This document shows positions 2,825-55,594 of a stretch of 55,594 nucleotides of DNA, one piece after another. The DNA comes from Deltaproteobacteria bacterium (GTDB lineage Bacteria; Bdellovibrionota_C; UBA2361; SZUA-149; JADLFC01), in the NCBI GenBank assembly GCA_020845775.1, contig JADLFC010000017.1, positions 1 to 55,594 of the forward strand. Reading direction: 5' to 3'. Numbering within the stretch: the stretch's first letter is position 1; each line of letters starts with the position of its first letter. The translations under genes and the position numbers were made by a program. The notes beneath the pieces are model-generated. The model did no database searches and was not told the DNA's origin. It saw nothing but the letters and a program-made list of their open reading frames with translations.

Positions 2825-5800
2825 ATGCCAAAGCGCACAGATATTACTTCAATTCTCATCATTGGTTCTGGGCCTATAGTAATAGGGCAAGCTTGCGAGT
2901 TTGACTATTCTGGCACTCAGGCCGTTAAAGCTTTAAAGGAAGAGGGTTATAGGGTCATACTCGTAAATTCCAACCCCGCTACAATAATGACTGATCCAAA
3001 CTTGGCTGACAGGACTTATATAGAGCCAATAACCCGCGAATTTGTTTCCCAAATAATACGCAAAGAGCGTCCCGATGCTTTGCTTCCCACTATTGGAGGG
3101 CAGACTGCACTAAATGTTACGTTGGAGCTCGAAGAATCGGGAATATTCGAGGAGTGCGGAGTAAAGCTCATTGGGGCTAGTGCGGAAGCTATTAAGACGG
3201 CTGAGGATCGAGAGCGTTTTAAGGAGGCTGTTACGCGTTGTGGCTTAAGTAGCGCAAAGAGTTTTATTTGCCGCGATTTAGAAACTGCCAGGCGCGCGGC
3301 GGCAGAACTCGGCTACCCGTTAATCATTAGACCCTCGCGCACCTTGGGAGGAGCGGGTAGTGGAACTGTTTTTTGCGAGGAGGAGTTAGAAGAGAAACTG
3401 CGTTTGGGCTTTAGCTTGAGTCCTATTGGAGAACTCTTACTGGAGGAGTCGCTCATTGGCTGGAAGGAGATGGAGCTAGAGATCATGCGCGATTGTGCTG
3501 GAAATGCCGTGGTAATTTGCGGCATCGAAAATATCGATCCCATGGGAGTTCATACGGGAGACTCGATTACCGTGGCACCTATACAGACCCTTACCGATAA
3601 GGAGTACCAGCAGCTTAGAGATGGTGCTATCCGCCTGATGAATGAAATTGGAGTAGATACAGGCGGTTCTAATGTTCAATTTGCGATGTGTCCACGAACG
3701 GGGCGAGCAATAGTGATAGAGCTAAATCCGCGAGTCTCGCGCAGTTCGGCCTTGGCATCTAAGGCGACTGGTTTTCCCATAGCAAAGATTGCGGCGAAAC
3801 TGGCTGTGGGTTACACGCTCGACGAGTTGCCAAATGACATTACCGAAAAGACCCCGGCTTGTTTTGAGCCGAGCATAGATTACGTGGTCGTTAAAATTCC
3901 GCGCTTTGATTTTGAGAAATTTAAGACGACAAATCCCATTCTTGGCACGCAGATGAAGTCAGTGGGCGAGGTGATGGCCATTGGGCGAATTTTTCCAGAA
4001 GCCCTACAAAAAGCCTGTCGATCGCTAGAGGTCGGCAGAACAGGGCTTTTAGGGGGTGAGGAAAGCGCGGAAGGGGATTTAGAAGTTTTGCTAGCAAAAA
4101 TTGAAACGCTTAATCCTCGGCGCATATTTCAAATTGCGCGAGCTATGGAGCTCGGTGCGTCGCTAGAGGAATTAGCCAGAAAGTCGAACTACGATATGTG
4201 GTTTCTTTTCGAGATGCAGCGAATTGTGAAGGCTGAAAAAAGCCTGCTTGAGTTAGGTGAGAATGCGCTAAGTAGTAGAGAAGTGTTGCGCGAGCTAAAG
4301 CGCCTTGGGACAAGTGACAGGAGAATTGCAAAATTGTGTGGGGTTTCGGAGATCGATGTTGCTAGTCGCCGACGAGAGCTTAGTCTGCGGCCCGTTTTTA
4401 AGACAGTCGACACGTGCGCGGCCGAATTTGCATCGCATACGCCGTATCTATATTCTACGTATGATAGCACGGAGGAGGGAGAGGTATCCTCGGCCAAGAA
4501 GGTGGTCATATTGGGTGGTGGACCCAATAGAATTGGGCAGGGTATAGAGTTTGACTACTGCTGTGTACATGCCGCCATGGCGCTAAGGGGCATAAATATC
4601 GAGACGATAATGTTGAATTGCAATCCGGAAACCGTTTCTACCGATTACGATACTTCTGACAGACTGTATTTCGAGCCCTTGGAGTTAGAGGATGTAATGG
4701 AGGTGGTGCATAGAGAGAGGCCGTGGGGAGTAATCGTTCAGTACGGCGGCCAAACGCCACTAAGGCTAGCAAATGCCTTGAAGGATTGCGGAGTCCCAAT
4801 TATTGGCACTAGTCCAGAGGCTATAGAGCTTACGGAGGACAGGGAGAAATTTAAGCGGATTCTTGCCGAGCTAAATTTGTTGCAGGCAGAGAATAGGACG
4901 GTTAGCAGGCCGGATCAGGCCTGTCAGGCAGCTAAGGAAATCGGGTATCCAATAGTTGTAAGGCCAAGCTTTGTTTTGGGCGGGCGCGCAATGGCTATCG
5001 TATATACGGAGGACGAGCTTAAGACTTATATTGAGGAGAGTGTAATGGTGTCTAATGAGAGGCCGGTGTTAATAGACCGCTTTTTAGATAACGCCATTGA
5101 AATTGACGTCGATGCCGTTTGTGACGGGAAGCTGGTAGTAATTGCAGGAATTATGGAGCATGTGGAACGGGCTGGTATACATTCTGGAGATAGTTCATTC
5201 ATGCTGCCCGCCCAAACGCTTACGGATTCGGTGCTAGCTGAAGTGGAGCGAGCCTCGAAAATCCTCGCCCGGGCGTGTGGTGTAGTGGGCTTGATGAATG
5301 TGCAGTTTGCAGTATGCGGTGGCAAGGATGTATACGTAATTGAGGTTAACCCCAGAGCATCTAGGAGTGTGCCATTTGTCTCAAAGGTCACGGGCATTCC
5401 ATGGGCAAAGGTAGCTGCGAGAGTTATGGCGGGGGAAACTTTGCGGCAGTTACATGACAGTGCCGAGTATGGAGATATTCTTCGCTTTGAAAATTATGCC
5501 TTAGCTATTAGCGATCTAAATTATGTAGCGGTAAAGGAATCGGTGTTTCCATTCATTAAATTTCATGGAGTCGATGCCCTGTTGGGGCCAGAAATGCGCT
5601 CTACTGGTGAGGTGATGGGGATTGATAGGACTTTTGCAGGTGGTTTTTATAGGGCGCAGGTGGCTGCTGGCGCTACGCTTCCATTGAAAGGAACTGTGTT
5701 TTTAAGTTTAAGGGATGAAGATAAGGACGAGTCTTTAGATTATACGCGAAAGCTAAAGAGTATGGGCTTTAAGCTAGTCGCGACTAGTGGGACCGCGCAG

Positions 5801-39002: not shown

Positions 39003-39428
39003 CTATGCTTTTATGAAAAGAATATACGTCCATGGAAGAATGGCACCAAACACATATACAGCACTTATTGCTCCCAGTGCCCTTTTTACCCAAGGCACTT
39101 TCGCAGTGATGAGGGTCAAGGTTACAACTACAACGATGGCTAATATCTTTGCATATGCGAGAGCCGATACTGTTCCGACCTCGTCCATGAGAGAGCGAAG
39201 CAGTGGGTTTCCCTCAATACTCGATCCAAAGCGAGCTACACCCATGCCCGTTAAAATTGCATCGAGTGCCTGAAGAACGACAAGAAAGGATCCTAGCGCT
39301 AATACGTCGCGCGAAGGAATGAACGACGAAGCCGTCATTGGCAGCGCCGCACATGAAGCACGTCCTACTTTAGATGAAACAGAGTAAAAGCAACAATCAT
39401 CCTGAGTTTTGTACGCTAATTCGCTCAT
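39003..39428 (-). CDS. DUF5658-like small membrane protein
   Basis: LVVLQALDAILTGMGVARFGSSIEGNPLLRSLM resembles the DUF5658 EGNPL motif. Two transmembrane helices are present. The N-terminal 30 aa (MSELAYKTQDDCCF...) may not be translated; an alternative start is MTASSF. Confidence 0.5.
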   Translation of the reverse strand: MSELAYKTQDDCCFYSVSSKVGRASCAALPMTASSFIPSRDVLALGSFLVVLQALDAILTGMGVARFGSSIEGNPLLRSLMDEVGTVSALAYAKILAIVVVVTLTLITAKVPWVKRALGAISAVYVFGAILPWTYILFIKA

Positions 39429-39556: not shown

Positions 39557-41314
39557 TTAAGCCTTGCCCTTTGATTTCCCCATTTGATAGCTCTCAATCG
39601 TTATTGCACCCTTATCAATGGTAGTAGAGCCGAGCATTACTCCCATTTTTCTGATTTGCTCGATTGCATCAGGGGTAAGGTACTCTCTAGCCTTTTGCTG
39701 ATCGTCTGGCGGTGCGAACATCAACAACATCTGACCCATATTTTCTAAAGTAGTTCCAAAGCGATCGAAGCTCATGTACCAGTTAAACAATGTGTCCCGT
39801 TCGGAAAGAATCGATTTTTCCATGCCAGACGCCATTGACGCAAATACCTCTCCCTTTCCATTTATTCCTTTTAAAAGCGCCCTGAGTTGATTATCAGTTG
39901 AAGAGGCGATGACGAAATTCTTGTGACGTGTAAGGAACATCCCAAAGCCTAATGGACTCATCATACTTTTTACCTTCACGCCATCAATTTCATTTTCCTG
40001 CCACTGCAAACCCTGGGCGCCGCCTTGTGTTCCCATATATGACGTCACTATTTGCGAAATCTGCTGCTCGGATTGTTCCGCCGCATTCGATTCGAGCACG
40101 ATGAGTAGATCTGGAACTGGCAACATCGAACCGCCACTGCTAGGTGAGTTGACTACCAAACCAACGCGCTGAACGGCATCGAGCACCTTGAGCTGGTCCT
40201 GCACCGGCGCTGGGGCGTTAGCAGCTAAGAGTGCCTTAGCTCTTAGAAGCGTTTGGCCGTCCAAGCTTATAAACAGCAGTGGATCTGCTGGAAGCACTTC
40301 CAACATGCTTTTTGCGTTTGAGCTTCCAAAGATCTCAAAAACTTTCTTTTGGTTCTCGTCTCGGGGATTAAATAGAAGCTTCACAATCGCGCTTGGAATA
40401 TCTGCCATAGCGGAGGACAATGAAATCGCTTCTATTGGTGACTTAGAAACAGAGGCAATTAAATCGGACTTATTTTCGGCCTTAGCGATGTGCTCAACGA
40501 TTTTCGTAAGGTCGATGTACCCAAAGCCGTAACGGCTTTCGCTACTAGGAAAGTCCTGCGTAGCGCGTTTAAAATTCTCCGAATTTACAAACTGCGGAAC
40601 TCCTTGCTTCGCAGTCAGTACTTGTTGAATCACTGTCTCGCTAAATGAGAACACGCCCGTGCCGTTGTTCCACGCGACGAAAATCATTGGCGGCACTTTA
40701 GCCGCCGCTTTACATGCATCGACATCGTCGCATAAGTCATAACTCGAAAAACTAAAACCCTTAGCCCCGGAGATCGACTCATCCTTGACCTCAATACCAG
40801 CCTTTTTGATCTCATCTCTTATAACCGCCAGTCTATTCGGCAATTCGTCTTTTTTGCTGCTTCGCAACAACAATCCAATACTCGTCAATGGTTCGCTTGC
40901 CTGCTGTGGCAGCGTAGCGAAAAGCGCTACCTCGCCAACGAAGTCTTCAATTACTTGAGGTTGCTCGCTCAGATTACATGATCCCTCTAAAATCTGAGCC
41001 ACTTTTTTCGGAAAGCCCTCGCTAGTCAAGATGTCCTTAGCTGAAAACTTGTTTTGCCGAGGGGACCATGGAGAAGCCAGTAATCGCTTGTACGCCGCAT
41101 GCGACAAATCGGCAGATACAAAACAATATGCATCAGAAGGAATAGACTTTACGAGCGAATCGCTGTTTGTGAGCTCAGCCGCAACGTCGGTCGCCTGTGC
41201 TTTTTTTGCAACGACCGAAGTCTCCTTCTTCTTGGAACATGAAGCGGTAAATAAAAATACAGATGTTAGTAAGATAAGCGCAACTCTCGATAGTGAATTG
41301 CAAAACAGTTTCAT
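39557..41314 (-). CDS. Large putative lipoprotein of unknown function
   Basis: Start chosen at MKLFCNSLSRVALILLTSVFLFTASC, a signal peptide with a lipobox-like TASC sequence. The rest of the protein has no recognisable domain. The track ORF extends to 41377. Confidence 0.55.
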   Translation of the reverse strand: MKLFCNSLSRVALILLTSVFLFTASCSKKKETSVVAKKAQATDVAAELTNSDSLVKSIPSDAYCFVSADLSHAAYKRLLASPWSPRQNKFSAKDILTSEGFPKKVAQILEGSCNLSEQPQVIEDFVGEVALFATLPQQASEPLTSIGLLLRSSKKDELPNRLAVIRDEIKKAGIEVKDESISGAKGFSFSSYDLCDDVDACKAAAKVPPMIFVAWNNGTGVFSFSETVIQQVLTAKQGVPQFVNSENFKRATQDFPSSESRYGFGYIDLTKIVEHIAKAENKSDLIASVSKSPIEAISLSSAMADIPSAIVKLLFNPRDENQKKVFEIFGSSNAKSMLEVLPADPLLFISLDGQTLLRAKALLAANAPAPVQDQLKVLDAVQRVGLVVNSPSSGGSMLPVPDLLIVLESNAAEQSEQQISQIVTSYMGTQGGAQGLQWQENEIDGVKVKSMMSPLGFGMFLTRHKNFVIASSTDNQLRALLKGINGKGEVFASMASGMEKSILSERDTLFNWYMSFDRFGTTLENMGQMLLMFAPPDDQQKAREYLTPDAIEQIRKMGVMLGSTTIDKGAITIESYQMGKSKGKA

Positions 41315-41533
41315 AGACTCTTTAGACTCCAAAATAGTAAGGAATAATGCCTTAGGATGATTTCCAATACCTGGCACGCCTGCGCTGCCCTGATAAGTTC
41401 GATTAGCTCTGCTTATACTGTTTTCGTTGGCTTTTGCCCAGAGGATAATATCAACACGCCCCGACTAGTAAATAGGCAAGGGGTGTTTTTGCAGTTTTTT
41501 TTGTGGCAGCGAAGACGCTAGTAGCGACTATAT

Positions 41534-42785: not shown

Positions 42786-43832
42786 TTATTGCTCAGTACC
42801 AAAGAGATTCGGATTCCCAGATTTCTCGATGGCCGTCTCCTTCGTAATCAGATGAGCATCGGCTAACTCCACTAATGCCATTTCCATCGTCCGCATGCCC
42901 ACATTCTGCCCAGTCTGCAGCATACTCGGCAGTTGGTGAATCTTGTTTTCCCGTATGAGGTTTCTAACACCCGTCGTCCCTACCAGTATCTCCAGTGCCG
43001 CAATTCGCCCGCCACCGACCTTCTTGCAAAGCGTTTGAGTTATTATTGCTTGTACCGACTCGCTTAGCATTGCTCGCACCTGACCCTGTTGGTCAGCGCT
43101 AAACACATCGATAATGCGATCTACTGTCTTAGGTGCACTTGAAGTATGTAGTGTCCCGAACACCAAATGACCTGTCTCTGCGGCGGTAAGCGCCAATTGA
43201 ATAGTCTCCAAATCTCGCATTTCGCCAACGAGAATGATATCTGGATCCTCTCGCAAAGCGGCTCGCAACGCCGCCGCAAACGAGCCCGTGTGTGGCCCAA
43301 CCTCACGCTGGTTAACCAAGCAGCGCTTCGAGGGATGCACAAACTCAATCGGATCCTCGACGGTAAGAATGTGGCCTTCCAGCTCATTGTTTATTAGATC
43401 GACCATTGCTGCCAAGGTGGTGGATTTTCCAGAGCCGGTTGGGCCAGTAACTAGTACTAAACCCTTTTCCTTTCGCGTTAGCTGCGCCAAAATTGACGGC
43501 AAGCCCAACTGCTCGAGGCTCATTATTGCAGTAGGAATAGTCCTAAACACGGCGCCCATCCCACGCCGCTGCCTAAAAACATTGACGCGAAACCGCGCTC
43601 CCTCACCAAGCTCAATTGAAAAATCAATGTCATTGTACTCCTCGAACACTTTTCGCTGAGAGTCACCCATTATGTCGTAAAGCATCGCATGCGTCTGCTC
43701 CGGACTAAGCACTGGCAACTTTACTTTTTTCATGTCGCCATGTACGCGAATAATAGGCGGCTCGCCGGCACTAATGTGTAGATCCGAACCACCCTGCTGA
43801 TACGTAAATGTTAGTAACTGAGCTATATCCAT
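42786..43832 (-). CDS. pilT: Type IV pilus twitching-motility ATPase PilT
   Basis: 348 aa with the Walker A VTGPTGSGKSTT. The PilT signature AIRNLIREGKxHQxxS is approximated by VRNLIRENKIHQLPS. Confidence 0.9.
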   Translation of the reverse strand: MDIAQLLTFTYQQGGSDLHISAGEPPIIRVHGDMKKVKLPVLSPEQTHAMLYDIMGDSQRKVFEEYNDIDFSIELGEGARFRVNVFRQRRGMGAVFRTIPTAIMSLEQLGLPSILAQLTRKEKGLVLVTGPTGSGKSTTLAAMVDLINNELEGHILTVEDPIEFVHPSKRCLVNQREVGPHTGSFAAALRAALREDPDIILVGEMRDLETIQLALTAAETGHLVFGTLHTSSAPKTVDRIIDVFSADQQGQVRAMLSESVQAIITQTLCKKVGGGRIAALEILVGTTGVRNLIRENKIHQLPSMLQTGQNVGMRTMEMALVELADAHLITKETAIEKSGNPNLFGTEQ

Positions 43833-43875
43833 ATGCTAGAGTATCTATGGGCTAAAAATTAGTTTCGTACGCCTT

Positions 43876-43915
43876 GAATCTGCTACCTACAGCCAAGAGC
43901 AGATTCGTACAAGTA
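43876..43915 (-). terminator. Hairpin downstream of the flp pilin gene (gaatctgct-N13-agcagattc, extended by cgtac arms)
   Basis: A 9-bp perfect inverted repeat is visible. A second, smaller hairpin, tgcgc-gtca-gcgca, lies at about 44071-44084. T-runs are weak, so it could be an attenuator between flp and pilT. Confidence 0.3.
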
Positions 43916-44116
43916 TTGAAATCGAATGTTTCTCGCCAAAGCTTGACCCTTAAGCGCTAGGAAAAGAAATTGTGATGGGATTTATTAAAAACCGTTCTTC
44001 CGATTTACACTCAACAGACCTGTTAAATTAGGCCTTTAAGTAGCAAAACCCGCGTAAAAACAACAACTTATAAAGTTCTTGCGCTGACGCGCACGAAATT
44101 ACTCATTAAAACAATA

Positions 44117-44284
44117 TCAATCCGTGTCTATCGCCTCTTTGAGCTCTGGATTGCTTAACAGCTTAGAGGCCTCGCCGCCAACCGCCGCAACGCCTATAAC
44201 ACAGGCGAGCATTATGAGCGATGCGACTAAAAGATACTCTAACAACGTAGCGCCTTTTTCGTTATGGAAATATTTAAACATCAT
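44117..44284 (-). CDS. flp: Flp/Fap-family type IVb pilin (prepilin)
   Basis: Hand translation of the minus strand gives MMFKYFHNEKG|ATLLEYLLVASLIMLACVIGVAAVGGEASKLLSNPELKEAIDTD*. It has the Flp motif G/ATxxEY, with E at +5 and Y at +6 after the cleavage Gly, and a hydrophobic helix. At 55 aa it falls below the 60-aa cutoff of the ORF track. Confidence 0.8.
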   Translation of the reverse strand: MMFKYFHNEKGATLLEYLLVASLIMLACVIGVAAVGGEASKLLSNPELKEAIDTD

Positions 44285-44514
44285 GCCGTTAATGATAGAT
44301 TTAATTAATGTATTTAGCTTAGCATAATGATTAATCTTTTTGAATGGACAAAATTAACACTTACAACATAGTTGCAACATTGCTGGCATTTGCCGCAAAA
44401 ATCGATTAGTTGAATGCTCCGATTGTAGATTTTTATTACAACCCGCATCGGGTTCGCGCATAATATTAATTTGGGGTTCTTAGTAGGGAATTTGCGATTT
44501 AAATACTAACGTTT

Positions 44515-47500
44515 ATGAATTCATTGGCAAGCGACACAGAAGATCGAAGAGAGCCTTACCATGCTGTTATTCACGGTAAGAGCAACTTCTCAACAAGGCC
44601 AACGAGAATTTCGGGTTTTTGGGGCAGCACTGTTGCCGCTTACGAGATTTCCAAGCTCGCCCGTAAGCAAAAGCGAACCTTTTCGATCGTCGTGGTCGTT
44701 CCCGACTCACGTGCGGCGGAGGAGATAGAGCGAGATCTGCACTTTTTTTTAGATGAGGCGCAGGCTAAGGATCAAACCAGCACTCCTGCGATTACTATCT
44801 CCAAATTCCTAAACTGGGAGGTTCTGCCGTTTGACGAATTATCTCCAGCCCGAGACATAAGCGCTGAGCGCTTGTTTTCCTTAAAGACCCTCGCCATGAA
44901 TCAATGCTCAATAGTTGTCGCTACTGCGCCAGCTCTGATGCAGAGAATTCTCCTCCCACGAGATTTAATGACGAGTATAAGGAAAATATCTCTCAACATG
45001 GAACTATCGAGAGATAAATTCATTGCCAGCCTCGATAGCCTTTCTTACGTTCGAACTACTTTAGTGGAGGAAGTCGGACAAATGGCTGTGCGCGGAGCCG
45101 TAGTGGATTTCTTTCCGCCAGGCATAAATCTGCCGATAAGAGTTGAGCTGTTCGCAGATATAATTGGATCAATTCGCACTTTTAATCCTGCCACTCAGCG
45201 AAGCGTCACTTCGTTAGCGGAGTTTGAAATCATGCCGGTAGGTGAATGCGTGCATCTTGCCGATTCCTCTCAACGCGTCCAATTTGCAATAGATAAGATT
45301 AAGGAGCGCGCAGACGACCTTGCAATTCCAACTAACCAGATCGAGGGCTTGATAGATGCGCTTAAAGGCAATGCCGATTATCCAGGCCTCGAACACCTGT
45401 TCTGCCTAATTTCAGAAAGCTCAGGAACGTTTCTTGACTACGTTTCGGAAAGTTCCTTGCTCGTAGCATACGACGAAATTGCCATCGCACAGGCTTTGGA
45501 TTCCTTTGAGGCATTAGTAGAAGAGCGAAGCCTCTTGGCTGAGAAGGAAGGGAGGCTTTTTTGCCAAACATCCTCTGCGTTCCAAACGGCAGAGCATACG
45601 CTAAGACAGCTACGCAAGAGGGGAAATTTCTTCTTTGACACTGTCGATATGCTTTCCTTCGACGATTCGCTTAGAGACGCCGCCAATGAGTCGCACGCAG
45701 AGTCTCCTAGCCTGGAGAAAGTGCGTGTTTACTCGAATTCAGAGATAACTAAGAAACTCTGGTCTTCCACCGACCAGGTTCAACCTTTTAAGGAACTCTC
45801 GAGGGAGATAAAGGCACGCATAGACGAGGGAGTAGCCGTCGCTTTAGTAACTAGCCAGGCATCGCGAGTTCAGCGCATTGTCGAGCTACTAACTAATTAC
45901 GAAATATCTTGTGAAAGGTTTAAAGGCTCATTTGCGAACTGGAGAAGTAGAGTAGAGAGCAGTAGCGGACGAGATCGCAAGGTAGTTAGTATTCTGGAAG
46001 GTGTGTGTGGTTCGGGATTGCGCGCGCTCGATGATGCTTTGATGTTTATTTTGGACACGGAAATTTTTAGAGACATGGCCGTGCGCCAGACGCGCTTTGC
46101 AGCACAAAACATTAAGCGCTTTCTTGGCACTAAGTCGCAATTAAGCGAGAACGATTTCGTGGTTCACGTCGATCATGGCATCGCCATCTATCGGGGCCTA
46201 AAGGCCATGACAGTGGAAGGCGAGATAAACGATTATCTCCACCTAGAGTACGCCGAAGGGGCCAAGCTCTATGTTCCAATGGACAACATAGCTAAGGTAC
46301 AAAAGTATATCAGTGCCGGAGGAGGCGCGGAACCGCAGCTAACTAAACTCGGTTCTACTGCCTGGGAAAAGGCTAAGACAAAAGTTCGGCAAAATGTTCA
46401 AGTCTTGGCGGGCGAACTCATTAAGATTTATGCCGAAAGACAGGTAGCCAAAGGACTATCGTTTGGGGAGCCGGATGAAGAGGACGAGCGCTTTGCCGAT
46501 TCCTTTGCATTTACTGAGACGCCCGATCAGATGTCGGCCATTGACGATGTATTGAGAGACATGGCGTCTGATAAGCCCATGGATCGCCTAGTATGTGGCG
46601 ATGTCGGCTACGGCAAGACTGAGGTTGCCGTGCGCGCAGCATTTAAGGCCGTCATGTCGGGTAAACAGGTCGCCATTTTGGTTCCGACGACGGTTTTGGC
46701 GGATCAACATTTCGCTACCTTTAGTGAGCGCTTTGCAGGATACCCAATTCGCCTAAAATGTTTGAGCCGTTTTTGTTCGCCTATTGCAAATCGCCAAACC
46801 GTTTTGGAGCTTGCTAGTGGCAGCCTAGATGTAGTAATCGGCACACACCGCCTTTTGCAGCGAGATGTGCATTTTAAAGATCTGGGATTGTTGATTATCG
46901 ATGAAGAGCACCGCTTTGGAGTGGCACATAAGGAGAGGTTTAAGCGATTTAAGCGCGAAATAGATGTCTTGACATTGAGCGCTACGCCTATCCCAAGAAC
47001 TCTCAACATGTCGCTATCTGGTATACGGGATTTAAGCGTAATCGAAACACCACCAAGCGATCGGCAAGTAATTAGAACGTACATTGCGCCGTATAGCGAT
47101 GGCGTAGTGCGCGAGGCGATAATGCGCGAGATAGGACGCAGCGGGCAGGTGTTTTACATTCACAATCGAGTCAGCAATATCGCTGCTATTGCAGCCGAGC
47201 TTGGCAAACTGGTTCCAGAGGCCAAGATAGAATTTGCCCATGGACAGATGCACGAAAAGGAGCTAGAGGTTATTATGCATCGATTCGTAAGTCGCGAGAT
47301 CGATGTGCTGGTTTCAACTACGATTGTCGAGTCTGGCTTAGATATTCCAAACGCCAACACCATCATCATTCGAGGAGCAGAAAAATTCGGCTTGGCTGAG
47401 CTTTATCAGCTTAGAGGTCGGGTAGGAAGGAGCTCGCGCCGCGCCTATGCCTACCTACTAGTGCAAGATTTAAAGAACATTGCCGGGGATGCAAAGCGGC

Positions 47501-48174
47501 GCCTACAAGTGCTTCAATCGTTAGACGACCTAGGTGTGGGCTTTCGATTAGCGCTTCAGGATATGGAAATTCGCGGCGCAGGAAATCTTTTGGGAAAGGA
47601 TCAGTCAGGACAAGTAAGCCAAGTTGGCTTTGAGTTATATTCTCGGATTTTGAAGGAAGTTGTGGATAACATGCAGGAGAGTGCTGTAGAAACCACCAAT
47701 CTCACAAAAGATGTTCCCATAGTGGAACCAGAGGTTCATATTGGTTTTCCCGTTCATATACCGGAGTGGTATATTCCGGATGTTGCCGAGAGGTTAGTAT
47801 TGTACCAGCGATTAGTAGATTTGCGAGACGAGGCGCGAGCTGGCGAGTTAAGAGAAGAGATCGAGGACAGATTTGGCAGGCTTCCAGAAGAAGTCGCTTT
47901 GCTGCTCGAGCTAATGACTTTTCGCAGTTTGCTAAAACAAGCTCGAATTGTGTCGGCTAGTTTTAGAAATTCTCAGCTAGTGTTAGCATTTCACCCGCGC
48001 GTTTCTCTGGATGGCAAAACAGTTATCGAAGCTATTCAGACCGCAAGGGGTCGCCTAAAGATTAGCCCAGATATGGTATTAAAAGCTGATATTGGAGTAC
48101 AGAAACTGGAGTCACCCGCCGAGTTGCTAGGTCACACAAAGGCAATATTAAAACAGCTTGGCGTGCAAGTGTAA
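44515..48174 (+). CDS. mfd: Transcription-repair coupling factor Mfd
   Basis: 1219 aa. UvrB-homology N-terminal modules, a RecG-like SF2 helicase core (CGDVGYGKTEVA, DEEHRFG) and a TRG motif are present. Confidence 0.95.
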   Translation: MNSLASDTEDRREPYHAVIHGKSNFSTRPTRISGFWGSTVAAYEISKLARKQKRTFSIVVVVPDSRAAEEIERDLHFFLDEAQAKDQTSTPAITISKFLNWEVLPFDELSPARDISAERLFSLKTLAMNQCSIVVATAPALMQRILLPRDLMTSIRKISLNMELSRDKFIASLDSLSYVRTTLVEEVGQMAVRGAVVDFFPPGINLPIRVELFADIIGSIRTFNPATQRSVTSLAEFEIMPVGECVHLADSSQRVQFAIDKIKERADDLAIPTNQIEGLIDALKGNADYPGLEHLFCLISESSGTFLDYVSESSLLVAYDEIAIAQALDSFEALVEERSLLAEKEGRLFCQTSSAFQTAEHTLRQLRKRGNFFFDTVDMLSFDDSLRDAANESHAESPSLEKVRVYSNSEITKKLWSSTDQVQPFKELSREIKARIDEGVAVALVTSQASRVQRIVELLTNYEISCERFKGSFANWRSRVESSSGRDRKVVSILEGVCGSGLRALDDALMFILDTEIFRDMAVRQTRFAAQNIKRFLGTKSQLSENDFVVHVDHGIAIYRGLKAMTVEGEINDYLHLEYAEGAKLYVPMDNIAKVQKYISAGGGAEPQLTKLGSTAWEKAKTKVRQNVQVLAGELIKIYAERQVAKGLSFGEPDEEDERFADSFAFTETPDQMSAIDDVLRDMASDKPMDRLVCGDVGYGKTEVAVRAAFKAVMSGKQVAILVPTTVLADQHFATFSERFAGYPIRLKCLSRFCSPIANRQTVLELASGSLDVVIGTHRLLQRDVHFKDLGLLIIDEEHRFGVAHKERFKRFKREIDVLTLSATPIPRTLNMSLSGIRDLSVIETPPSDRQVIRTYIAPYSDGVVREAIMREIGRSGQVFYIHNRVSNIAAIAAELGKLVPEAKIEFAHGQMHEKELEVIMHRFVSREIDVLVSTTIVESGLDIPNANTIIIRGAEKFGLAELYQLRGRVGRSSRRAYAYLLVQDLKNIAGDAKRRLQVLQSLDDLGVGFRLALQDMEIRGAGNLLGKDQSGQVSQVGFELYSRILKEVVDNMQESAVETTNLTKDVPIVEPEVHIGFPVHIPEWYIPDVAERLVLYQRLVDLRDEARAGELREEIEDRFGRLPEEVALLLELMTFRSLLKQARIVSASFRNSQLVLAFHPRVSLDGKTVIEAIQTARGRLKISPDMVLKADIGVQKLESPAELLGHTKAILKQLGVQV

Positions 48175-53636: not shown

Positions 53637-54113
53637 ATGCCTTTAATGAGGTGTAATCTAGGAGATAATAGAGGTATCTCACTAGTAGAGCTTTCAATTA
53701 TTCTTCCAATGTTGATGCTGCTTTTAGGCGGCATAGTGGATGTCGGTCTAACGCTTAGGACTTATCAGGTCGTCTCGGAAGCTGCTAGACAGGCGGCTCG
53801 AGTTGGTAGTGGCGTTAGCTGTGCTGACGCTCCCGGCGTGGCTGTGGACACTGCTACTAATTTCCTTACGAATGCTGGTTATAAAGTTCAGGAAGTAAAA
53901 GGAGATGAGACTATTAACCACTGGATTATCGCTGCCGTTCAGGCGCAACACCAAGAGGGTTTGGGAACGGCGGCATTCGATGAGTGCATGTTAAGGGTAT
54001 CGATCGACCAAAACACTCCGTCCTGCGTCATCTGTTTGGGCGAGACTTTTCTTGGGCTTCGCGCTAACGCGGAGAGCACATTTGCCATGGAGCCAGGATG
54101 CAAATGTCCGTAG
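53637..54113 (+). CDS. tadE: TadE-like Flp pilus assembly protein (pseudopilin)
   Basis: MPLMRCNLGDNRGISLVELSIILPMLMLLLGGIVDVGLTL is a TadE N-terminal motif. Start chosen at the internal ATG at 53637; the track ORF begins at 53574. Confidence 0.75.
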   Translation: MPLMRCNLGDNRGISLVELSIILPMLMLLLGGIVDVGLTLRTYQVVSEAARQAARVGSGVSCADAPGVAVDTATNFLTNAGYKVQEVKGDETINHWIIAAVQAQHQEGLGTAAFDECMLRVSIDQNTPSCVICLGETFLGLRANAESTFAMEPGCKCP

Positions 54114-54648: not shown

Positions 54649-55594
54649 ATGGGTTTAGGCAATTTTTTTAATTCTAACGACAGGCGGACTCGTGCTTTTG
54701 ACGAGCGTGGCTCAGTGATAGTCTTTGTCGCACTGCTAATTGGAGTAATGGTTGGCGTGGTCGGTTTGGTAGTGGATCATTCTAGGCATGCCGTAACTGC
54801 TCTTCACCTTAAGACTGTTGCTGATGCTGCCTCGCTTGCGGCATCGCGCAAACTGGATGGAACCCATGACGGCTGGCGACAGGCCAAACGTGCGGCCGTA
54901 GCAGTATTGAGGCAAAGTAAGATTTACGGAGTGGGGAATATTAGCTTCGAGTCTGCAAGTTTTAATGATGGCGTTGATGACCCATATGAGGATAGTGCCA
55001 ATTACAAAGCCACCAAGATGCGCGTTGGCGATGTTGCACTAACTATTGAGCGAGGTGCATGGTGGTATGAAGTGGATGAACACAAAGACGATGCCGGCCA
55101 ACAGAAGTTTTTTTCATTTGAGGGCTTGAAGGAAGTAAATGATTTTCCACCTTATGCTTTAGCGAATGCCGCTCAAGTTAGCCTAGAGCTTGCTGAAATG
55201 GATTTAACTTTTGCGAAAGTTTTTGGGCAGTCAAAGATTGGCACTACGGCGAGAGTAAGTACTGCAATTTCCGATAACGAGGTTCAGGAAGTTTGCGTAC
55301 TGCCAATTGCAATAAAGGATTGCATGCTGCGCATGGCCCCAGGCGCAAAAGACGATGGCTTCATGTACGATGAGTTTCACGCCGAGAAGCAATGTTCCAG
55401 AGAGGTAGCTACAAAAGTGGGAATGCAAGAGATGCCGCAGTTAGAGGAGGGGGCTCGATTGGCTGAATCCTATGTCTTGCGCACAGTTCCAGAAAGCTCT
55501 TCCGCTGGTAAGCTTCCCGAGCGAGATAACAAAATGGTTAACATCGAGGCAGTATTTGGGCTTCCAACGACTAACTTTCAAAGCTCGAAGGCCA
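54649..55594 (+). CDS. tadG: TadG-like Flp pilus assembly protein, N-terminal part (runs off the window end)
   Basis: Hand translation gives MGLGNFFNSNDRRTRAFDERGSVIVFVALLIGVMVGVVGLVVDHSRHAVTALHLKTVADAASLAASRKL..., a TadG N-terminal motif. There is no stop codon before the window end. Confidence 0.65.
   Translation, partial: MGLGNFFNSNDRRTRAFDERGSVIVFVALLIGVMVGVVGLVVDHSRHAVTALHLKTVADAASLAASRKLDGTHDGWRQAKRAAVAVLRQSKIYGVGNISFESASFNDGVDDPYEDSANYKATKMRVGDVALTIERGAWWYEVDEHKDDAGQQKFFSFEGLKEVNDFPPYALANAAQVSLELAEMDLTFAKVFGQSKIGTTARVSTAISDNEVQEVCVLPIAIKDCMLRMAPGAKDDGFMYDEFHAEKQCSREVATKVGMQEMPQLEEGARLAESYVLRTVPESSSAGKLPERDNKMVNIEAVFGLPTTNFQSSKA

Follow-up and report, generated by a model that had tools for sequence, protein, structure and literature searches.

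We analysed a 55,594-nucleotide stretch of DNA (the window), positions 1 to 55,594 of contig JADLFC010000017.1 (GenBank assembly GCA_020845775.1) from a Deltaproteobacteria bacterium of the Bdellovibrionota_C lineage. On its minus strand lies an ATG-started open reading frame (ORF) encoding 55 amino acids (aa), MMFKYFHNEKGATLLEYLLVASLIMLACVIGVAAVGGEASKLLSNPELKEAIDTD, which is almost certainly a genuine prepilin gene of the Flp family, and which we refer to as flp. The sequence is exactly as quoted in the initial annotation of this DNA. That annotation had called the gene unlisted, but the public record of this Deltaproteobacteria metagenome-assembled genome (MAG) holds it as 'hypothetical protein IT291_01115'. 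No in-frame start codon was found 5′ of the flp ATG, and no Shine–Dalgarno sequence precedes it, as is also the case for the neighbouring pilT and mfd, neither of which has an obvious one. The initial annotation dismissed a 67-aa ORF on the opposite strand as spurious, and rightly: it is present mechanically, as an ordinary antisense shadow, for the −1 frame is likewise open across flp in three other lineages. A six-frame motif scan found no second ORF with an Flp motif in the window.

The gene stands between mfd, which is transcribed divergently from it, and pilT, which starts 284 bp downstream of the flp stop codon on the same strand and is followed by pilU (Table 1). The initial annotation described the same spacing and took the two downstream genes for type IVa ATPases; both products exceed the 319.1-bit cut-off of NCBIfam TIGR01420 (PilT/PilU family type 4a pilus ATPase) and, set against the Pseudomonas aeruginosa pilT-pilU pair, they are canonical members. 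The PilT of the window is 60–63% identical to Pseudomonas PilT, and 60–70% identical across the PilT proteins of Pseudomonas and Nitrospira.

Table 1. Features of the flp locus and of the minor-pilin cluster, in window coordinates.
Feature	Coordinates	Strand	Evidence or remark
pilU, PilT paralogue, 390 aa	41534–42706	−	TIGR01420, 448.7 bits
pilT, type IVa pilus retraction ATPase, 348 aa	42786–43832	−	TIGR01420, 488.5 bits; GVRNLIRENK motif
flp–pilT spacer, 284 bp	43833–44116	−	Probable weak flp terminator hairpin, and pilT promoter or 5′ leader
flp, Flp-family (type IVc/Tad) prepilin, 55 aa	44117–44284	−	ATG-started ORF; PF04964 match below threshold; orthologues in the same slot
flp stop codon	44117–44119	−	
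flp, predicted mature part (A12–D55, 44 aa)	44120–44251	−	
flp, leader (M1–G11)	44252–44284	−	
67-aa antisense ORF	44124–44327	+	Mechanical shadow frame of flp, not a gene
Divergent mfd/flp intergenic region	44285–44514		Presumed to hold both promoters; hypervariable between same-species strains
mfd, transcription-repair coupling factor	44515–48174	+	Divergent neighbour of flp; control for neutral synteny
tadE-like minor pilin, 158 aa from ATG at this start	53637–54113	+	PF07811, 48.1 bits; NRG|ISLVEL
tadE/tadF-like minor pilin, 172 aa	54098–54616	+	PF07811, 24.4 bits; QKG|ATMLEF
tadG-like large minor pilin, cut by window end	54649–55594	+	PF13400, 26.9 bits

The product of flp is a divergent Flp prepilin

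The flp product has the anatomy of a class-III signal, comprising an 11-residue polar leader, a hydrophobic stretch of ~22 residues and a short amphipathic tail. The prepilin motif reads G11|ATLLEY17, with Glu at +5 and Tyr at +6, and is followed by the hydrophobic segment LLVASLIMLACVIGVAAVGG. At 55 aa the precursor lies within the ~50–80 aa range of such prepilins, and its orthologues span 53–65 aa. The sole Pfam match is to Flp_Fap (PF04964), at 19.8 bits and E 6.8e-4, below the gathering score of 32.2 bits, and a scan of NCBIfam returned nothing significant; these two results account for the 'hypothetical' label.

Homologues were accessible only by exhaustive search. A word-indexed search with the single Flp sequence recovered the query itself and nothing else, whereas phmmer against 1.84e9 cluster representatives retrieved 35 Flp-like proteins at E <= 1e-3, nearly all of 48–91 aa, with a few longer ones bearing one or several Flp-like stretches. 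Across an alignment of 26 homologues, G11, E16, Y17 and G36 are invariant, and all but three of the aligned proteins (23/26) individually match PF04964, with a best E of 1.2e-16. The profile of this alignment reached more than 7000 proteins at E <= 0.001; PF04964 is found in nearly all of the 120 listed, many of which bear the NCBI or JGI name 'Flp family type IVb pilin'.

With the same profile, two Tad pilins of solved structure, 8u2b and 8u1k (Caulobacter PilA), were matched at E 7e-11. Their mature chains begin with ATAIEYGLI..., and the first of these residues aligns to A12 of Flp, which supports the predicted cleavage site between G11 and A12. This link to the solved pilins is transitive, by way of the homologue profile, and the single sequence alone falls short of it. 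An AlphaFold2 model computed with the homologue alignment has helices at residues 3–43 and 46–53 (mean pLDDT 83.4), and the subunit is predicted to be fully α-helical. A Foldseek search of the Protein Data Bank (PDB) with this model gave no matches, for so short a helix.

In common with the Flp/Fap pilins of Tad (type IVc) pili, the protein is a short prepilin with the G/XXXXEY motif, a hydrophobic stretch of ~22 residues and a predicted helical fold, and its mature part has 44 aa, against 45 aa in the solved chains of 8u1k and 8u2b. It differs from them in scoring under the Pfam gathering threshold, in its C-terminal tail 'GGEASK..SNPELK', which is present in full only in the orthologue on contig L088 and partially in that on L173, and in its place between mfd and pilT-pilU rather than beside tadV/rcp/tadZABC. 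Membership of the Flp family is therefore supported by every feature tested except the curated Pfam threshold, and the protein is best described as a divergent member. The initial annotation, which called it a 'textbook Flp prepilin' and proposed a search with PF04964, was borne out by the motif, the helical model, the profile homology and the conservation; 'textbook' overstates a match that is the only one in Pfam yet lies under the curated score.

flp occupies the same slot in four lineages

Comparing gene order in related genomes, a check proposed in the initial annotation, placed the flp-pilT-pilU arrangement in four lineages (Table 2). The closest Flp homologue, P0003 (64 aa; 56% identity over 45 aligned residues, E 1.5e-8), is encoded on contig L088, where uvrA, pgm, a surA-like gene and mfd lie on one strand and flp, pilT and pilU on the other, exactly the slot seen in the window. 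A third case emerged from a hidden Markov model (HMM) scan that covered all six-frame ORFs of 173 fetched loci: on L093/L177, mfd is divergent from an flp of 53 aa (QRG|ASMVEY), followed after 338 bp by pilT and then pilU. In the fourth, the 1.5-kb contig L173, the N-terminus of Mfd is encoded divergently from an flp of 65 aa, with 158 bp between flp and the N-terminus of PilT. An empty regular-expression motif scan upstream of pilT at the first 14 PilT loci had suggested that flp is specific to one lineage, an idea overturned by P0003 in the same slot and by the L093 gene found with the HMM scan.

Table 2. Lineages with the mfd/flp-pilT(-pilU) arrangement, and protein identities to the window.
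Lineage	GC content	Flp	PilT	Mfd
Window	48%	Reference	Reference	Reference
L088	58%	56%	87%	55%
L173	39%	46%	72.5% (N-terminal 160 aa)	~40% (146-aa N-terminal fragment)
L093	50%	34%	78%	45%

Flp identity tracks the divergence of Mfd across these lineages (45–55% identity, a range given by the lineages with full-length Mfd only), as expected for vertical inheritance. On L093 the outer neighbours of mfd and of pilU are not those of the window, so the block of mfd, flp, pilT and pilU has outlasted its flanks; mfd is the most conserved member of the block, counted with or without flp. The L093 gene (4501–4662; P0148) also illustrates how short pilins are mis-annotated, since public gene calls start it at Met13 (41 aa) and so drop the leader and the processing Gly, while the upstream ATG yields a proper 53-aa prepilin, MNLNCNSQRG|ASMVEY.

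Other relatives lack the gene. L008, a Bdellovibrionales MAG, is as near to the window as L088 is (PilT 84% and Mfd 51.5% identical), and both it and L009 keep the divergent mfd and pilT-pilU with only 245 and 197 bp, respectively, between them and no flp. In L010, pilT lies in another context, again without flp. Searches with tblastn for flp remnants in the intergenic regions of L008, L009 and L010 gave only noise, and the small ORFs directly upstream of pilT in L009 and L010 (54 and 55 aa) proved not to be Flp-like. No Flp ORF was found near ~155 other PilT loci from Nitrospira, Gamma- and Betaproteobacteria and others, with flanks of up to 5–8 kb per side, so the arrangement is clade-specific rather than generic. 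From the Mfd distances, flp is ancestral in this slot, predating the divergence of the four Bdellovibrionota-like lineages, and has been lost at least twice while pilT-pilU stayed. The initial annotation would have given the gene up if relatives lacked the ORF; it is missing from L008, L009 and L010 but present in L088, L093 and L173, and the gene is thus not refuted. This synteny appears to be unreported in the literature that we searched.

Intergenic regions and strain variation

The spacers between flp and pilT measure 284 bp in the window, 218 bp in L088, 338 bp in L093 and 158 bp in L173. When the spacers and upstream regions were compared with those of L088, L093 and L173, all Smith–Waterman and alignment scores fell within the shuffle range, and no promoter or leader element proved to be conserved. 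The surrounding intergenic DNA has therefore been randomised and, from mfd to pilT, only the Flp reading frame has been kept, from which we conclude that flp is old and under selection. Judged by this comparison of sequences, flp is a real gene under purifying selection. Apparent common elements in the spacers, 'GTCAAGCTT' or 'AAAGGTAATG', span 9–11 nt only and are not significant, and a search of Rfam at a permissive E-value over 43700–44650 gave no match.

In the window, a hairpin lies ~25–65 nt past the flp stop and is followed by a GGUUUUG U-tract, which is probably a weak flp terminator. Such a layout is typically seen where a strongly expressed pilin gene precedes genes under separate control. 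A sigma-54 promoter upstream of flp (TGCCAG-N5-TTGCA), read by eye, was rejected as it is without the invariant GG. Likewise, a possible RNA pairing between flp (44232–44244, in the part coding for LLEYL) and the pilT initiation region (43834–43846), a 13-nt inverted repeat with 12/13 positions complementary, was judged to be chance: it is marginal against shuffles in the window (15/300) and is absent in L088, L093 and L173.

Contigs of the same species (L001–L004) are 99.2–99.8% identical to the window, against a background of roughly 0.7% single-nucleotide polymorphisms (SNPs). Relative to L001–L003, 26 SNPs fall in the 230-bp mfd/flp intergenic region and 7 in the first 165 bp of mfd, while pilT has one, the flp–pilT spacer none, and flp a single synonymous one, too few for a dN/dS test. 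The hypervariable tract extends over 44318–44679 in the comparison with L001–L003, which are about 99.3% identical overall, and stops ~34 bp short of the flp start codon; in L004 this stretch is almost the same as in the window. The pattern resembles a tract imported by recombination or a promoter region under fast evolution. In L001–L003, gene callers annotate an ORF of 54 aa here, which is not an ORF in the window. Two palindromes (44323–44342 and 44364–44385) lie in the mfd/flp region of the window.

The corresponding region of L093 is 581 bp long and contains, at 4031–4500, six copies of GTAACTGGTCA, four direct and two inverted, the last of which ends at the base preceding the flp ATG, as well as two direct repeats of 24–28 nt. 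The repeats may be a regulator-binding array; they are absent from the window and from the other lineages.

A dispersed Tad/Kil-like pilus is the probable setting of Flp

The initial annotation placed tadE, tadF and tadG about 9 kb away on the other strand, and we find genes resembling them on the strand opposite to flp at a distance of 9.3–10.4 kb. The TadG-like protein, truncated in the window, is 774 aa at full length in L005 (10552–12876) and Cys-rich. Only its first ~65 residues match a known domain (PF13400), and its large C-terminal part has no match in Pfam or NCBIfam. Past the tadG-like stop there is a perfect hairpin with a 13-bp stem and no further gene. Bounded by uvrA on one side and this strong hairpin, with no adjoining gene, on the other, tadE-tadF-tadG forms a stand-alone three-gene cluster.

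Such a layout has a precedent in Kil, the Tad-like predation pilus of Myxococcus, an FHA-rich system that works with a 'needleless' type III secretion system (T3SS*) (PMC8460266, PMC12075869). A machine of the Kil type has an FHA-fused ATPase, a short secretin and FHA/kinase genes. The major pilin of Kil, KilP (mxan_5121), is the product of an orphan Flp gene distant from the kil clusters. Its minor pilins KilL/M/N, which resemble TadE/F/G, assemble as 'Tip' trimers and are encoded by four separate clusters of three genes; the large KilN constitutes the tip and the complexes are rich in predicted disulfide bonds (PMC12075869). Kil-like systems have been recorded in Bdellovibrionales (PMC8460266).

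The parallels with Myxococcus xanthus Kil are several. Both encode an Flp major pilin away from the machinery (here, as far as the window extends), both have a separate TadE/F/G-like trio with a large TadG-like member rich in Cys (for Kil, as PMC12075869 describes it), and both belong to the phylogenetic neighbourhood of predatory 'delta-proteobacteria'. By analogy with KilN, the C-terminal part of the TadG-like protein may be an adhesin or tip domain. The next-closest Flps after P0003, namely P0055, P0149 and P0154 (41–50% identity), lie inside Tad loci of Bdellovibrionota-type contigs (L089, 8459–17995; L174, 6370–16189; L183, 6594–16162) in the order PP2C, (FHA), Ser/Thr kinase, TadZ, flp, RcpC/CpaB, CpaF, TadB and TadC. 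The closest canonical relatives of our Flp thus sit, in other genomes, in Tad loci flanked by FHA, Ser/Thr kinase and PP2C genes, as kil clusters are. There are also differences: KilP has 97 aa whereas our Flp has 55 aa, the two being likened by layout and not by sequence, and KilP is not reported beside pilT. In the same three Bdellovibrionota-type loci a FHIPEP (FlhA/SctV-family) gene directly follows the Tad genes, and in L183–L185 an FHA/YscD-like gene comes next; a Kil-like Tad system and a T3SS*-like export gate may be physically linked here.

A second point of comparison, by description only, is the set of Tad/type IVb genes in the hit locus of Bdellovibrio bacteriovorus (Bd0108–Bd0121, with the putative Flp-like Bd0118/0119; PMC3818213), from the same or a related phylum. 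There, too, a partial, scattered Tad set coexists with type IVa pili, and cross-talk between the two has been speculated upon (PMC3818213), but the Bdellovibrio genes lie in a Tad cluster and not beside pilT.

Taking the sequence relationships together with the Kil analogy, we consider it probable that Flp serves as major pilin, encoded by an orphan gene, in a Tad/Kil-like pilus of dispersed layout, processed at G11|A12 by an enzyme of the TadV type, polymerised by a CpaF-type motor and tipped by TadEFG. The 55-aa precursor would enter the inner membrane via its hydrophobic helix, where a TadV/CpaA-type aspartic prepilin peptidase would cut off the 11-residue leader after Gly11. The resulting 44-residue helical protein would be polymerised by a Tad/Kil-like machine, with a CpaF/TadA ATPase and a TadB/C platform, encoded elsewhere in the genome, and the TadE/TadF/TadG minor-pilin complex from the cluster 9 kb away would prime or tip the filament. 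Transcription of flp would most likely start from its own promoter.

Several observations tell against this model. Added to the sub-threshold Pfam score and the empty NCBIfam scan, no tadV/cpaA, cpaF, tadB/C or rcpA/secretin gene occurs within the 55.6-kb window, which reaches 44 kb from flp in one direction and 11 kb in the opposite one with no machinery gene in either, so that a Tad machine in this genome is deduced from TadE/F/G only. A scan of the flp–pilT spacer found no consensus terminator. Finally, flp, pilT and pilU keep the same strand and order in four lineages whose Mfd proteins are, where full-length, 45–55% identical and whose GC contents range from 39 to 58%, and this order survived while the flanks on both sides were rearranged, as the comparison of L093 with the window demonstrates.

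Alternative explanations

The lack of a consensus terminator, the shared strand and order and the rearranged flanks are also the case for the alternative that survives best, in which flp, pilT and pilU form a functional unit, either co-transcribed or co-regulated, or with the Flp (Tad/Kil-like) filament retracted by PilT/PilU. Further in its favour, the arrangement is missing from the ~155 other PilT loci, the Bdellovibrio literature has already postulated Tad-type components tied to the type IVa pilus (PMC3818213), and Kil pili visibly retract (PMC12075869). Nevertheless, we think it unlikely. L008 and L009 keep the divergent mfd and pilT-pilU without flp, and mfd, for which a role in pili is implausible, is conserved beside pilT equally well or better; because this unrelated gene is even more conserved beside pilT, conserved adjacency at this locus need not mean shared function. 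The variable spacers carry no conserved sequence or structure, the hairpin and U-tract stand 3′ of flp in the window, and PilT is a highly conventional type IVa protein by its identity to the Pseudomonas and Nitrospira enzymes. Moreover, the canonical homologues nearest to this Flp are encoded within ordinary Tad/Kil-like machinery loci. The initial annotation was correct that Tad/Flp pili lack PilT-type retraction ATPases: none is listed for Tad (type IVc) pili in Table 1 of PMC6920026, and their retraction is attributed to the bifunctional CpaF (PMC6920026). Its further proposal, that the gene order reflects cross-talk between the systems or a pilin of another filament, finds no support beyond the adjacency itself, in view of the relatives without flp, the unconserved spacers and the mfd control. 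Functional coupling of flp with pilT-pilU is therefore not supported, and the adjacency is best read as an old, stable gene order rather than as a shared machine.

We regard as decidedly improbable that Flp is an Flp-like protein but not a Tad pilin, being instead a short pilin or pseudopilin that the type IVa machinery uses and PilD processes, or else a small membrane protein regulating PilT/PilU. Its gene does adjoin type IVa ATPase genes, the Tad machinery is not in the window, and NEKG|ATLLE also resembles type IVa leaders; the top PDB matches by single-sequence phmmer are to geopilin (Geobacter PilA-N), though they are not significant (E 0.18 and 0.4). However, type IVa major pilins are characterised, besides the Glu at +5 that Flp also has, by Phe or Met at +1, a mature protein of more than 100 aa and a globular β-domain, and none of these three is found in Flp. 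Instead, it has Ala at +1 and Tyr at +6, both Flp features, and a 44-aa, predicted all-helical mature part without a globular domain, as suits an Flp. The family profile separates the two as well, scoring E 7e-11 against the Tad pilins but only E 0.36–0.68 against geopilin, and nearly all of the significant homologues match PF04964. TadE and TadF proteins with matching motifs are, in addition, encoded nearby.

That flp is a chance open frame is suggested by its shortness, the missing Shine–Dalgarno sequence, the sub-threshold Pfam score and an antisense ORF of similar length, but this is effectively refuted by the comparative sequence data, namely homologues at E 1.5e-8 and 3.5e-6 in a library of 1.84e9 proteins, same-slot orthologues in three other lineages although the flanking DNA is randomised, and a processing motif invariant among homologues, while the bona fide neighbours pilT and mfd are equally devoid of an obvious Shine–Dalgarno sequence.

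Other genes in the window

The rest of the window is made up of housekeeping genes, including pyrC-carAB, greA, rimP-nusA-infB-rbfA-truB, relA/spoT, a surA-like gene, phosphoglucomutase, uvrA and others. Just downstream of pilU, the minus strand encodes a 606-aa protein (39557–41377) with only a sub-threshold match to DUF3352, followed by a DUF5658 protein (39003–39428, minus strand); this neighbourhood differs in L088 (FolB) and in L093 (phosphoribosyltransferase, FlgE). A protein of 1161 aa (20059–23544) combines a reprolysin-like (M12B) metalloprotease domain with bacterial Ig domains and FG-GAP repeats. It is a candidate protease, secreted or at the cell surface, that would merit attention were the organism a predator.

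Implications

Tad (type IVc) pili are in part characterised by the lack of a PilT-type retraction ATPase. An Flp gene kept upstream of pilT-pilU over deep divergence is a lead to the question of whether Tad-like filaments might borrow type IVa motors, and it comes from a phylum of predators in which Tad/Kil-like pili mediate prey contact and have been seen to retract. The conserved order across deeply diverged genomes is compatible with such coupling, in which flp would be co-expressed with pilT-pilU and these would power or regulate retraction of the clade's Flp filament, or with assembly of Flp by the type IVa machine. We give this little credence; if true, Flp would be the first pilin of Tad type to have a PilT-class retraction ATPase of its own. 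The evidence at present is synteny in uncultured organisms, with mfd as a built-in control for neutral adjacency.

Even if the adjacency is neutral, the locus adds a divergent Flp subfamily that lies under current Pfam and NCBIfam thresholds and is hence recorded as 'hypothetical', and, with Myxococcus KilP as the first, it would provide a second case of a major pilin encoded as an orphan and accompanied by a stand-alone TadEFG tip cluster. It would also mean that annotation of MAGs systematically falls short for the major pilins of dispersed Tad systems. The flp gene is a divergent addition to an established family, its dispersed arrangement is of a known type, and its conserved synteny with pilT-pilU is a reasonable lead.

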